From IMG/VR virus record IMGVR_UViG_2531839662_000032: 31,502 nucleotides of DNA, one strand, 5' to 3'. A program made the position numbers and the translations under genes. The DNA is from a virus (Duplodnaviria; Heunggongvirae; Uroviricota; Caudoviricetes). Positions 40 through 21,556 of the stretch are shown here, piece by piece. Below the pieces are notes generated by a model. That model did not search any database, was not told the origin of the DNA, and worked only from the letters and a program-made list of their open reading frames with translations. Position 1 is the first letter of the stretch. Every line of letters begins with the position of its first letter.

Positions 40-402
40 GGGGCTGATTCTGGATTCGACGGGATTTGCGAAACCCAAGGTGCATGCCGAGGGGCGGTTG
101 GCCTCGTAAAAAGCCGCAAAAAATAGTCGCAAACGACGAAAACTACGCTTTAGCAGCTTAATAACCTGCTTAGAGCCCTCTCTCCCTAGCCTCCGCTCTT
201 AGGACGGGGATCAAGAGAGGTCAAACCCAAAAGAGATCGCGTGGAAGCCCTGCCTGGGGTTGAAGCGTTAAAACTTAATCAGGCTAGTTTGTTAGTGGCG
301 TGTCCGTCCGCAGCTGGCAAGCGAATGTAAAGACTGACTAAGCATGTAGTACCGAGGATGTAGGAATTTCGGACGCGGGTTCAACTCCCGCCAGCTCCAC
401 CA
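40..402 (+). ncRNA. ssrA: tmRNA (SsrA), complete, about 363 nt
   Basis: Begins GGGGCTGATTCTGGATTCGAC and ends with tRNA-like T-arm/acceptor GGTTCAACTCCCGCCAGCTCCACCA (CCA at 400-402). Internal tag reading frame at 129-162 (GCAAACGACGAAAACTACGCTTTAGCAGCTTAA) encodes ANDENYALAA-stop. Confidence 0.95.
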
Positions 403-518
403 ATCATGATTGGACGGTGTAAGGACAACACCAACAAAAACAGGAAGTTAGCAGTCTCAGCAGGACACCGACCAGACGGTGAGGAGACAAAAAAGGATAC
501 GCAAAGGAGCCGCGGCTC
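373..518. repeat. Direct repeat copy 1 (ssrA 3' end plus about 115 bp trailer); putative prophage attachment site next to intact ssrA
   Basis: Near-identical to 21412-21556 (a handful of substitutions and a 1-nt indel, CCAGCTCCACCA versus CCAGCCCACCA). Homology stops abruptly at 518/21556. Confidence 0.7.
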
Positions 519-532
519 TCGAGTGACACAAA

Positions 533-560
533 AGCCCGCTTATGCGGGCTTTTTGTTTTT
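533..560 (+). terminator. Rho-independent terminator-like hairpin
   Basis: AGCCCGC-TTAT-GCGGGCT stem-loop followed by TTTTGTTTTT. Confidence 0.55.
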
Positions 561-636
561 CCCTTAAGTTCCTAGCCGCTTATCTATAACTATGGAAAAA
601 TGTTAACCCTGACTGTATGTTAACAAAGGGATGTAT

Positions 637-1845
637 ATGTCGGTTTTTCATAACTGGCTGCTTGATATCGCAAGCGGGAATTACTTTATCTACATCAAAC
701 GCCTTTCTGCAAACGACACAGGCGCAACAGGTGGCCATCAGGTCGGACTTTATATCCCCTCAAATATCGTTGAAAAGCTTTTTCCATCTATCAATCATAC
801 TCGCGAACTGAACCCTTCAGTCTTCCTTACTGCGCATGTATCATCCCATGATTGCCCTGATACCCAAGCACGCGCAATTTATTACAACAACCGTTATTTT
901 GGTAAGACCCGAAACGAAAAAAGAATTACGCGCTGGGGGAGAGGAAGTCCATTACAGAACCCTGAAAATACAGGAGCCCTCACAATTCTTGCTTTCAGGT
1001 TAAACGAACAGAACACTGACTGTTCCGAGGTAGATATATGGGTCTGCGTCAATCCCGATGAAGAGGATATCATCGAGTCTGCTATTGGCGAAATCATACC
1101 TGGAACCCTAATTTCCGGCCCTGCCGGACAAATTTTGGGCGGATTGTCTCTTCAGCAAACTCCAGTAAATCATAAATATGTTATTCCTGAAGACTGGAAG
1201 AAGCGTTTTCCTTCTGGAAACGAAATTATTCAATATGCTGCTGGCCATTATGCTAAAAACTCCAAGGATCCAGATGAGCAACTGATTGACCGTCGGCGTG
1301 TCGAGTATGATATTTTTCTACTCGTCGAGGAATTACATGTTCTTGATATTATTAAGAAAGGATTCGATTCTGTAGATGAGTTTATTGCATTAGCCAACTC
1401 TGTCAGTAATCGACGTAAATCAAGGGCAGGCAAATCACTTGAACTTCACCTAGAGAAGCTTTTTATCGAGCACGGACTACGGCATTTCTCCACTCAGGCA
1501 GTTACTGAAGGTAATAAAAAACCAGATTTCCTGTTTCCTTCAGCAGAGGCATATCATAACGTTGAATTTCCTGTAGAAAACTTACGTATGCTGGCAGTAA
1601 AGACCACCTGCAAAGATCGCTGGCGTCAGATACTGAATGAAGCAGATAAAATCCATCAGGTACATTTATTTACACTGCAAGAAGGTGTTTCTTCAGCACA
1701 ATACCGAGAAATGAAAGATGCGGGTGTCAGACTCGTTGTACCATCAACTTTACATAAAAAATACCCAGAAGCAGTTAGAGAAGAATTAATAACGCTCGGA
1801 GCATTCATTACTGAGCTGATAGAGCTTTACGCTGAACTATCATAG
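637..1845 (+). CDS. ecoRIIR: Type II restriction endonuclease, EcoRII-like (CCWGG family)
   Basis: N-terminus MSVFHNWLL...YIKRLSANDTGATGGHQVGLYIP matches my recollection of the EcoRII effector domain. RBS AAGGG at 626-630 is 6 nt before ATG 637 (the track start at 631 lacks spacing). Convergent with an adjacent Dcm-like methylase. Confidence 0.85.
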   Translation: MSVFHNWLLDIASGNYFIYIKRLSANDTGATGGHQVGLYIPSNIVEKLFPSINHTRELNPSVFLTAHVSSHDCPDTQARAIYYNNRYFGKTRNEKRITRWGRGSPLQNPENTGALTILAFRLNEQNTDCSEVDIWVCVNPDEEDIIESAIGEIIPGTLISGPAGQILGGLSLQQTPVNHKYVIPEDWKKRFPSGNEIIQYAAGHYAKNSKDPDEQLIDRRRVEYDIFLLVEELHVLDIIKKGFDSVDEFIALANSVSNRRKSRAGKSLELHLEKLFIEHGLRHFSTQAVTEGNKKPDFLFPSAEAYHNVEFPVENLRMLAVKTTCKDRWRQILNEADKIHQVHLFTLQEGVSSAQYREMKDAGVRLVVPSTLHKKYPEAVREELITLGAFITELIELYAELS

Positions 1846-1850
1846 GCTGA

Positions 1851-1873
1851 CTCCCGGCTTAAAAGGCCGGGAG
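1851..1873. terminator. Bidirectional hairpin between convergent R and M genes
   Basis: CTCCCGGC-loop-GCCGGGAG inverted repeat sits in the 34-bp gap between the stop at 1845 (+) and the stop at 1880 (-). Confidence 0.5.
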
Positions 1874-19943: not shown

Positions 19944-19954
19944 TTTAGATAAAA

Positions 19955-19977
19955 ATGGCCTTTACAGGCCATTATTC
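19955..19977. terminator. Bidirectional hairpin between convergent int and the cargo operon
   Basis: AATGGCC-TTTACA-GGCCATT inverted repeat flanked by A/T runs. Confidence 0.45.
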
Positions 19978-20665
19978 ATATCAATGTATGTTGAATAGAA
20001 TAATTTTCAACACCATAATGAGATGCTAATTTTGATAAAAAACCATCCTTTGAAGATAAAACATCATCTAACATATTTCGTCTTACTAAAGAGACAAAAA
20101 GTGCAGCTGCTCTGGCTTGGCAATTAATAGATTTCTCTGGATTAAATTCAATATCAGTAAATCCATCAAAATTTAATAGATGGAGTGCTAGATTTTTGTT
20201 TTGATTGAGCGCGCTCAAATATAACCAATCATAAAAAGCAGTCCTGGGGACAATGGGCCATATTGTATTATAAAATTTGAAGTTAACTAATCCCCCAGAT
20301 TCCTTTAATCTCATATCTTTTTTTGCTTCTATCGAGCTTTTATCTAAGATATCGACATATGGTCCTCCCATTTCAAATACTTTACTTGCTTGAAATGCAG
20401 ATTCAACTGTAAACTCTTTCCCAAGTCTTTTCGTCTTTATTCTTAGATTAAATGCACTAAGTGCTACCCCCAGCGCATCTTCGGATTTACTAGAAATTTC
20501 CAACAAAGAGCTCAATCCCTGCTCATTCGCTGCTGTATGTAACGCCCTGATCGATTTTTGCTTTTGCGTTTTAGACATACCAGGAGCCCAAGGAAAATCC
20601 ACATCCTTCGTGATCGATAGTAAGTTCCCTGCGTTTGTAGGGACGAAAACAGGTCTAACGGCCAT
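19976..20665 (-). CDS. Hypothetical protein, putative cognate partner of the DarT-like toxin; no macrodomain motifs
   Basis: Starts 3 nt after the DarT-like stop with an AGGA RBS inside the upstream gene end. Only a short local resemblance (EFTVESAFQASKVF) to the NADAR hydrolase signature. AT-rich. Confidence 0.55.
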   Translation of the reverse strand: MAVRPVFVPTNAGNLLSITKDVDFPWAPGMSKTQKQKSIRALHTAANEQGLSSLLEISSKSEDALGVALSAFNLRIKTKRLGKEFTVESAFQASKVFEMGGPYVDILDKSSIEAKKDMRLKESGGLVNFKFYNTIWPIVPRTAFYDWLYLSALNQNKNLALHLLNFDGFTDIEFNPEKSINCQARAAALFVSLVRRNMLDDVLSSKDGFLSKLASHYGVENYSIQHTLI

Positions 20666-20668
20666 AAC

Positions 20669-21283
20669 TTATCCTAAATAATAATGCCTCTGAGAATAAA
20701 GTGTTCTAGCATTAAGATTATCATAATATCTCTGTATTGTCTGTGGATATAATCTCTTGAAATGTTCAGCAGATTCTTTGTTAGGGTGAAAAGTTCTTAT
20801 AATATATGAGGGAGGAATTTTTTCAAATACCAGTATTTCAGCTTGAACATCCGTCGTATACTCACTTGGAAGGTTTACATCTCTCTGAATCCCAAAAACA
20901 TTCTCTGAAAACAAAGCACTAAATGCCTCAGCTCCTTTCATCAAATCAAGATTTATAAAACGAACGTTATTCGAAGCTGCGTTGGTAGGATAAAAAGCGC
21001 AATCCTTAGCCCAAAGAACAGATGGATTGATTTCTAATATAACCCAGTCCCCAGGCTTTAAACATCTATATTTATAAAACATTTTTGCATTAGGGTAACT
21101 TACGGACAAACAAATCGCATCTGGATGACCATCAATCCTTTCTTCATCATTACAATTATATTCATTATCAAGTTCTGAACGAGACATAAGGCCATTATCT
21201 AAAATGGAAGTTAGATTATCGCTATGTGTAAAATGAAACAAGCTACGAATATTACGTTGCTGAATTATTTCCTGTATTGTCAT
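20669..21283 (-). CDS. DarT-like DNA ADP-ribosyltransferase (DUF4433 family) toxin candidate
   Basis: N-terminal IRSLFHFTHSDNLTSILDNGLMSRSEL (HFTH..NL.SIL signature), central ...DAICLSVSYPNAKMFYKYR... and C-terminal ...DVQAEILVFEKIP... with the conserved Glu context, following the DarT layout. AT-rich, between int and the distal repeat. Confidence 0.7.
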   Translation of the reverse strand: MTIQEIIQQRNIRSLFHFTHSDNLTSILDNGLMSRSELDNEYNCNDEERIDGHPDAICLSVSYPNAKMFYKYRCLKPGDWVILEINPSVLWAKDCAFYPTNAASNNVRFINLDLMKGAEAFSALFSENVFGIQRDVNLPSEYTTDVQAEILVFEKIPPSYIIRTFHPNKESAEHFKRLYPQTIQRYYDNLNARTLYSQRHYYLG

Positions 21284-21411
21284 AAAACATCCATTTACTT
21301 CATGTAAATATATGTTTTATATATAACATATACCTCAAGTATCCACAAAGGATACGCATGTGATCTACTTCAAATAAAAGCTATAAATTACAGTTATTTA
21401 CCATTAATAGA

Positions 21412-21556
21412 ACGCGGGTTCAACTCCCGCCAGCCCACCAATCATGATTGGACGGTGTAAGGACAACACCAACAAAAACAGGAAGTTAGAAGTCTCAGCA
21501 AAACACCGACCAGACGGTGAGGAGACATAAAAGGATACGCAAAGGAGCCGCGGCTC
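21412..21556. repeat. Direct repeat copy 2: last about 29 nt of ssrA plus about 115 bp trailer; distal attachment site
   Basis: Matches 373-518. Contains only the 3' acceptor/T-arm part of tmRNA (ACGCGGGTTCAACTCCCGCCAGCCCACCA), so it is not a second ssrA gene. Confidence 0.7.

Follow-up and report, generated by a model that had tools for sequence, protein, structure and literature searches.

We examined a 31,502-nt stretch of DNA (the window; IMG/VR virus record IMGVR_UViG_2531839662_000032) in which an intact ssrA gene, encoding transfer-messenger RNA (tmRNA), and a displaced copy of its 3′ end bracket an interval of about 21 kb. The interval is a decayed lambdoid prophage, a remnant without a functional phage gene set, and it adds a decayed member to a known family of ssrA-integrating lambdoid phages. 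It is very likely that a phage of this PhiNP/LLS family integrated at ssrA with a phage attachment site (attP) that carried a full replacement 3′ tail of the gene, and decayed afterwards.

The intact ssrA gene occupies positions 40–402 of the plus strand (ARAGORN; Rfam RF00023, 295.8 bits), in an smpB-ssrA context upstream and with ypjA as the downstream flank. An earlier note on this DNA, made from the letters alone, had proposed that direct repeats of about 146 bp at 373–518 and 21412–21556 bracket the island, and our repeat search and pairwise alignment bore this out: 141 of 146 columns were identical, the remainder being one 1-nt indel and four mismatches. Copy 1 (373–518, plus strand; the attL junction) consists of the ssrA 3′ end and a phage-borne trailer, and copy 2 (21412–21556, plus strand; the attR junction) of a displaced ssrA fragment (21412–21440) that lacks T357 of the gene, followed by the resident trailer (21441–21556). 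The indel is T396 of the window, missing in copy 2, whose share of ssrA is 29 nt (30 nt minus T396), just as the note had estimated. Identity was complete between 373–395 and 21412–21434 (23/23) and reached 97% between 397–518 and 21435–21556; outside the ssrA part it was not well below 90%, the level at which the note would have doubted the repeat. The two copies are by far the longest repeats within the 31.5-kb window, and a chance origin for a repeat this long and this identical is ruled out.

Beyond positions 518 and 21556, the alignment showed that homology persists at about 67% through the terminators that follow both copies, and BLAST aligned 21412–21595 with attL-type sequence at 91% identity over 186 nt. 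The phage-borne intrinsic terminator behind the regenerated ssrA (530–560, plus strand) has a 10-bp stem and a T-run; the resident ssrA terminator (21567–21592, plus strand) lies 8 nt from the convergent ypjA stop codon. Their stems differ by a compensatory change (GCCCGC/GCGGGC versus GCCCAC/GTGGGC). Since homology runs on through both, with the stem change compensated, the two terminators are diverged homologues, rather than copy 2 being followed by a different terminator hairpin, as the note had it.

We then assigned an owner to each copy. The predicted empty site, window 1–402 joined to 21441–22000 (962 nt), was present as a single 962/962 match in many complete E. coli genomes, and 1385 of 5426 complete E. 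coli genomes held one place covering at least 80% of this query; the predicted excision product is thus the natural locus in roughly one in four of them. It follows that copy 2 is the ssrA tail, trailer included, that resides in the chromosome. In K-12, copy 2 recurs without a difference beyond the attR of the CP4-57 island, T deletion, trailer and terminator alike, and there too it runs into ypjA, the autotransporter gene (21601–26181, minus strand) that forms the conserved chromosomal flank past the insertion. Copy 1 is phage-borne and travels with the phage: at this site RM10740 has an intact, roughly 45-kb relative with an identical attL, in which the copy 1 sequence is contiguous with the EcoRII end of the phage, and in 0H26 it is also contiguous with the phage left end, where the upstream sequence is a P4-like island and not ssrA. 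The final few nucleotides of the window ssrA, right of the crossover, are supplied by the prophage. The chromosome of UMNF18, a porcine E. coli, is 100% identical to window 1–25000, and a BLAST search with the whole window showed collinearity with one mismatch up to 29263 and divergence after this point.

These results, together with the kinship of the integrase to that of PhiNP and the presence of the same prophage at full length at the ssrA site in other strains, support the site-specific integration into the ssrA 3′ end that the earlier note had suggested. The note had also held that finding the same trailer behind ssrA in strains with no insertion would count against it. That arrangement is indeed common, yet integration stands: what the arrangement reveals is which copy is resident (copy 2) and which is the phage mimic (copy 1).

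The integrase (Int) gene (18774–19943, plus strand; Pfam Arm-DNA-bind_2 and Phage_integrase) lies at the distal end of the island and reads toward copy 2, as the note had observed, with a minus-strand DarT/NADAR pair intervening; this position, far from the intact ssrA, is unlike that in P4-type islands. Its product is 92.7% identical to PhiNP Int and 86.7% identical to LLS Int. An excisionase-like open reading frame overlapping the int start (18607–18813, plus strand) gave no match in a Pfam search and is 92.6% identical to the excisionase (Xis) of PhiNP; by sequence comparison, both int and xis of the remnant look intact. Integration of PhiNP into a 25-bp 3′ end of ssrA was shown experimentally (PMC6456863), and the attP of LLS was placed at ssrA by its authors from 29 bp of identity (PMC12315714); neither publication mentions the trailer homology. 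The window element has the features that define this family, a closely related Int and an int gene reading toward an att site that holds the ssrA 3′ end, as well as those of any tyrosine-integrase prophage in the tmRNA gene, with the recombinase inside, the intact gene at one end and the displaced 3′ fragment at the other.

Free phages of the family carry the long tail themselves. Beside int, the attP of LLS holds the 3′ end of ssrA, then a trailer with 92% identity to copy 1 and a similar terminator, and the PhiNP attP has the same layout, with the ssrA end, a trailer-like segment and a terminator. PhiR12 and LMessi, whose Int proteins are 68% identical to that of the window, carry tails with 74–76% identity. 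Across the sequenced-phage collection, the ssrA end and the trailer occurred together only in these PhiNP-family phages (LLS, PhiNP, PhiR12 and LMessi), and the P4-type arms that we examined carry different, short trailers. Of the two explanations that the note had offered for the length of the repeat, an attP carrying the ssrA trailer is thus what the free-phage genomes of LLS and PhiNP contain, and serial integration of related elements is not needed, though tandem arrays are common at ssrA.

The comparison with individual relatives sharpens this picture. PhiNP (Citrobacter rodentium, OR565852) shares with the window its Xis (93%), the ssrA 3′ target, the orientation of int toward attP and a cargo slot between the two, but it is intact and inducible, and its cargo consists of an AAA ATPase with a methyltransferase, ddi and HicAB. 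In K-12 its integration gave a repeat of only 25 bp, versus about 146 nt in the window, because CP4-57 sequence follows the K-12 ssrA. LLS (Escherichia phage, PQ299149) is likewise lambdoid, with an attP in which a "tmRNA pseudogene" is followed by the trailer and the same type of terminator; it differs from the window element in being free and complete and in its cargo genes. Two further phages were considered and set aside. Kp4866-6 seemed to be a PhiNP-family phage with no trailer, but its record comprises a prophage and a neighboring CP4-57-like island, so that the site in question is an attR and not an attP. Ayreon (MF807953) looked as though it integrated into the trailer itself, but it is a prfC integrator. 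Directly behind the prfC 3′ end that it carries lies a 115-nt trailer-like piece, which has lost several motifs and is accompanied by neither an ssrA fragment nor a terminator; this piece is probably the relic of an exchange of int-attP modules.

Taken together, these data suggest the following course of events. A temperate lambdoid phage with a PhiNP/LLS-type integrase would have made a tyrosine-recombinase crossover in the T-loop/acceptor region of ssrA (about 378–395). Right of the crossover, its attP would have carried the last ssrA nucleotides, an intrinsic terminator and, between them, a trailer of about 116 nt. Each of these has a homologue in the resident E. coli sequence, and because of this homology integration would in effect have swapped the left arms only. 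The resulting attL, the ssrA 5′ part joined to the phage tail, would be nearly attB-like, and attR, the int-side arm and core joined to the resident tail, nearly attP-like. The repeat is long because host and phage share everything right of the crossover, and the junctions have about 146 nt in common at 97% and about 186 nt at 91%. Later, about 24 kb of morphogenesis, lysis and late-control genes were lost in five deletions; the remnant keeps int and xis, the immunity region and, at either end, defence cargo (an EcoRII restriction-modification system and the DarT/NADAR pair).

The crossover most likely falls within GGTTCAACTCCCGCCAGC (378–395, plus strand), which covers the T-loop, the 3′ T-stem and the start of the acceptor strand. 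This stretch is an identity block common to the attL and attR of the window, RM10740, 0H26 and PhiNP. In RM10740, attR reads CGGGTTCAACTCCCGCCAGCTCCACCA and then enters a different island; in 0H26, the int-DarTG arm shared with the window is followed by GCCAGC-----CAATCATG, where the window reads GCCAGC-CCACCA. The attR sequence right of GCCAGC is strain-specific and therefore belongs to the host side, and this host-side right flank, together with the left boundary defined by PhiNP, would place the exchange within GGTTCAACTCCCGCCAGC.

The base missing between 21434 and 21435 (position 396 in copy 1) is T357 of ssrA, and copy 2 accordingly reads CGCCAGC-CCACCA. Onodera et al. reported that excision of CP4-57 leaves this same sequence and that tmRNA-ΔU357 is inactive (PMC10107115). 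A 5-nt scar also appears in Table 1 of that paper, and in 0H26 a 5-nt scar stands behind the phage arm shared with the window. Among the loci that we fetched, TCCACCA stood at every one of the 36 junctions behind intact ssrA. Among the displaced fragments we counted 60 intact ones, 11 without T357 and about 18 with larger deletions, so that about a third were scarred. The phage may have repaired ssrA on entering an allele in which an earlier P4-type island had already left the scar, or the displaced fragment may have decayed after integration. With either history, Int-mediated excision of the remnant should now yield a defective ssrA-ΔT357.

We next compared the two arms of the attachment site. 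Two tandem 11-mers in the distal trailer, AAAGGATACGC and AAAGGAGCCGC (492–513, plus strand), are candidate arm-type integrase sites on the P arm. The int-side (P′) arm (21284–21411, plus strand) contains at 21347–21358 an exact copy of the 12-mer AAAGGATACGCA found at 492–503 in the trailer; an inverted GTATCC stands immediately before the P′ copy. None of 500 shuffles scored as high as the window P′ arm against the distal trailer. In the window, PhiNP and RM10740, the distance from the end of the trailer-like stretch in the P′ arm to the core is 55–58 nt (no more than 1 of 500 shuffles scored as high), and the spacing to the core, counted by eye, is similar in Kp4866-6 and PhiR12; for the LLS P′ arm, the match with the distal trailer was not significant (p = 0.09). 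Inspection by eye also revealed a tandem AAARGnnnCGY motif, present twice, in the arms of PhiNP, RM10740, LLS and Kp4866-6. The window int-side arm has a single copy of the 11-mer, and PhiR12 carries AAAATGCACGT twice on both arms, at the same trailer position and in the int-side arm. Shared 9-mers between the arms, taken alone, were not significant (24–28% of shuffles); significance came only from the 12-mer, from the local alignments and from the coincidence in position.

The 11-mer motif appears to change with the integrase lineage, a pattern expected of arm-type Int sites and one that fits the Arm-DNA-bind_2 domain; the distal trailer 11-mers may be such sites. The attP of phage lambda has a core and arm-type Int sites on both arms, and the lambda attB has no arm homology. 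The window family is lambda-like in the N-terminal arm-binding domain of its integrase, and would also be so in its candidate sites, tandem direct repeats spaced at one helical turn on both arms. It is unlike lambda in that a whole arm is homologous to host sequence beside attB, with the consequence that attL resembles attB and attR resembles attP.

The trailer itself appears to be an uncatalogued, conserved structured element of about 116 nt behind ssrA. The phage-borne copy (403–518, plus strand) is predicted to form hairpin 1 (416–432), nested helices (453–487) and a palindrome (506–519); these three hairpin elements and the terminator are predicted alike for the two window copies, with RNA-fold z scores of −3.0 (copy 1) and −3.4 (copy 2). 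In an alignment of 81 distinct sequences, 94.7% of cells were paired versus 36–47% with slid partners, and 12 pairs had changes on both sides, a result that none of 500 shuffles equaled; the structure scored was specified by hand from the same related sequences (RNAalifold missed hairpin 1), and these sequences are partly phage-spread, so that shuffle controls overstate the significance. Hairpin 1 has GC or AU at one pair and UA, AU or CG at another, with the AGGAC loop kept; hairpin 3 has a pair-preserving change from CG to UA; and in hairpin 2 of PhiR12, CACCG/CGGTG becomes CTCTG/CAGAG, a double compensation, with the loop ACCAGA kept. With seven GGA motifs in 116 nt, where 3.5 would be expected, the trailer is modestly enriched in GGA (p = 0.024); the conserved AGGAC loop contributes one of the seven, and one has been lost from the resident E. 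coli trailer (CAAAACACC).

Searches of both copies at permissive E-values, and of the whole window at gathering score, gave no Rfam family for the trailer. The best match to a decoy RNA was PrrB_RsmZ at 20 bits (E = 0.023), below the gathering score of 44, so that the trailer does not qualify as a member of the CsrB/RsmX/Y/Z group. It may nevertheless be compared with the GGA decoys of the Csr/Rsm systems and with tRNA 3′ external transcribed spacers: it is short and structured, has GGA in a hairpin loop and in linkers, ends in a terminator and would form the tail of a highly expressed stable-RNA gene; it differs from the Csr/Rsm decoys in its Rfam score and in having few GGA sites. A text search of a paper library with literal sequences gave no match. 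A 15-codon open reading frame in the trailer (ATGATTGGACGG...) was dismissed, as it is not conserved and common variants stop at codon 5.

The trailer always occupies the sense strand between the CCA end and the terminator. At least 120 viral contigs matched it in a pattern scan, and the genera in which it occurs are Escherichia, Klebsiella, Raoultella, Citrobacter, Leclercia, Enterobacter, Trabulsiella, Erwinia and Mixta. It stands behind intact ssrA as well as behind displaced fragments with several different left arms. At megablast sensitivity, 4170 of 5426 E. coli genomes had the trailer, some of them in as many as four copies, and 1256 lacked it. An exact-pattern scan of species-representative genomes, which does not gauge universality, gave 59 matches, about 23 of them in Enterobacterales and the others attributable to chance in high-GC genomes.

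Where the resident trailer came from bears on an alternative account of the repeat, in which the E. coli trailer would be the left-over P arm of an older PhiNP-family prophage and two successive elements would have built the locus. Several observations are in line with such serial integration: the resident trailer holds the tandem 11-mers that also occur in the int-side arms of phages; the ssrA end with trailer is restricted to PhiNP-family phages, with P2-type and the examined P4-type arms having no such trailer; Ayreon carries a trailer-like piece with no ssrA end; 1256 E. coli genomes have no detected trailer; and tandem arrays are frequent at this gene. Furthermore, PhiNP-like phage sequence follows the Erwinia matches, so that part of the wide distribution of the trailer is phage-borne. 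Against this, the resident type, with the linker CTGGTRACATGAAAG and its own terminator, stands behind intact ssrA in E. coli, E. albertii and E. ruysiae, and in E. coli it always abuts ypjA, with 8 nt between terminator and stop codon, so that any such relic would have to be old and to end, after trimming, precisely at the terminator. Elsewhere (host genera inferred), recurring flanks follow the trailer after intact ssrA and after displaced fragments alike. The sharing of the resident type by three Escherichia species, in a fixed position against ypjA, points to an old chromosomal feature, and we consider a relic origin rather doubtful.

The trailer could also be a functional RNA, the 3′ external spacer of the ssrA transcript, acting as a processing or stability signal or as a decoy for a GGA-binding protein or for small RNAs; phages would then retain their copy because a lysogen with a substitute sequence would be harmed. 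This possibility, which is compatible with integration of a phage carrying the tail, seems less likely than not. The pair-preserving changes in hairpins 1 and 3, the compensation in PhiR12, the pairing statistics, the like folding of both copies, the constant placement, the GGA enrichment and the weak PrrB/RsmZ match speak for it. Conversely, no Rfam family reached threshold, the resident E. coli copy has one GGA fewer, K-12 lives with a different, CP4-57-derived trailer behind ssrA, and shuffle significance is inflated by the relatedness and phage-borne spread of the sequences. A more speculative extension, possible but no firmer than the spacer function itself, is that the trailer is an undescribed dual-purpose module, serving as RNA in a structured tmRNA 3′ spacer and as DNA in the P arm of PhiNP-family phages; in combination with the ΔT357 scar, the remnant would then be "addictive". 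Since host and phage share the trailer, attL would mimic attB and attR would mimic attP.

The earlier note had proposed comparison with CP4-57-type elements, which have the same target gene, and the ΔT357 scar of copy 2 is typical of P4-type islands. In K-12, CP4-57 is likewise followed past its attR by the identical trailer, terminator and ypjA, with T357 missing. Its P4-type integrase, however, lies next to ssrA and is unrelated in sequence, it has no lambdoid structural genes, and its own P arm carries a different, short trailer. By BLASTP, the window Int shared with CP4-57 IntA only a 25-aa motif match (E = 0.006). This similarity is not meaningful, the integrase gene sits at the end opposite the intact ssrA, and the gene content is lambdoid; we therefore rejected a CP4-57-type island. 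Arrival by homologous recombination or duplication in the absence of an integrase fares no better: the precise empty site and the free-phage attP fit an integrase, and no second copy of flanking chromosomal DNA is present. Both accounts are highly improbable.

Some points weigh against the integration of a PhiNP/LLS-family phage with a replacement tail, or at least against parts of it. The P2-type ssrA phages in the sequenced-phage collection carry about 31 nt of ssrA and no trailer, so the long tail is not generally required for integration at ssrA. The absence of T357 from copy 2 is unexpected if the crossover lies left of T357 and the host allele was wild type, and needs a pre-scarred host allele or later decay. 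The resident trailer may be either an ancestral host flank or an ancient phage-arm relic. Finally, the arm sites are candidates from sequence comparison, and excision of this particular remnant is a prediction.

The gene content between the two copies is that of a phage in decay. At the attL end lie an EcoRII-type restriction endonuclease gene (637–1845, plus strand; RefSeq; Pfam EcoRII-N, E = 4e-61, and EcoRII-C, E = 2e-71) and that of its partner, a C5 cytosine DNA methyltransferase (1880–3313, minus strand; Pfam DNA_methylase, 4e-78). The prophage body (3720–18547), delimited from RefSeq pseudogene flags, a BLAST map against RM10740 and Rfam, retains fragments of tail fibre, J, tail tube and head genes, in addition to Lom, methyltransferases, and replication and immunity genes, with an S24 repressor in the immunity region (16029–16703). 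Relative to RM10740, about 24 kb are gone in five deletions, which removed terminase, portal, tape measure, lysis genes and Q; the morphogenesis and lysis gene set is thus incomplete, and the element is a remnant rather than a functional member of the family. At several deletion junctions (3924–3926, 9523–9525, 11504–11507, 12051–12056 and 17334), the matched segments overlap by 1–6 nt, which suggests that the deletions may have been mediated by microhomology. Rfam also placed a C4 antisense RNA (14598–14685, minus strand; 80.7 bits) and an isrK-type Hfq-binding RNA (14710–14786, minus strand; 61.2 bits) back to back in the ash/immunity region of the remnant.

Between int and attR, the genes of a DarT1-associated NADAR antitoxin (19976–20665, minus strand; Pfam NADAR-DarT1, 7e-90) and a DarT ADP-ribosyltransferase (20669–21283, minus strand; Pfam DarT, 6e-23) form the cargo, and this slot holds other genes in RM10740, PhiNP and LLS. 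Both prophage ends are variable cargo slots whose contents differ among these relatives. At the ssrA locus of RM10740, the lambdoid prophage is followed by a P4-type island, forming a tandem array; in 0H26, a full-length, DarTG-carrying lambdoid prophage comes after a CP4-57-like island that contains an inserted group II intron and IS3 fragments, and this array shares with the window its int-DarTG arm and the phage left end.

Past the insertion, two further features were observed. Within ypjA, 22517–22642 contains periodic repeats of 6, 12 and 18 nt (GGNTYT-type, plus strand), a low-complexity stretch of the autotransporter. The tRNA-Ile gene ileY (minus strand) is reduced to its 3′ half at 29217–29263; at the anticodon loop it gives way to foreign DNA with a tyrosine recombinase gene (29460–30737), which marks a second island. 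The RefSeq record of UMNF18 has an intact ileY and departs from the window exactly at 29263; the junction in the window is common to 417 E. coli genomes.

Taken alone, the element is a routine prophage remnant at a well-known hotspot. It provides a worked example of attachment-site repeats that far exceed the recombination core when a phage carries a full replacement 3′ tail, at a locus that gathers defence cargo at both prophage ends (EcoRII restriction-modification; DarT/NADAR), and the conserved, structured element to which it draws attention behind ssrA is uncatalogued and may double as a phage P arm. If the trailer did serve both purposes, excision could become less dependent on Xis, and the host and phage copies could be driven into concerted evolution. 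The remnant is the sole source of a functional ssrA 3′ end in this strain; precise excision would recreate ΔT357 and, if the dual-purpose view holds, would switch the cell from trans-translation to ArfA rescue. Loss of the 21-kb remnant may therefore be costly, which is a plausible reason for its persistence.

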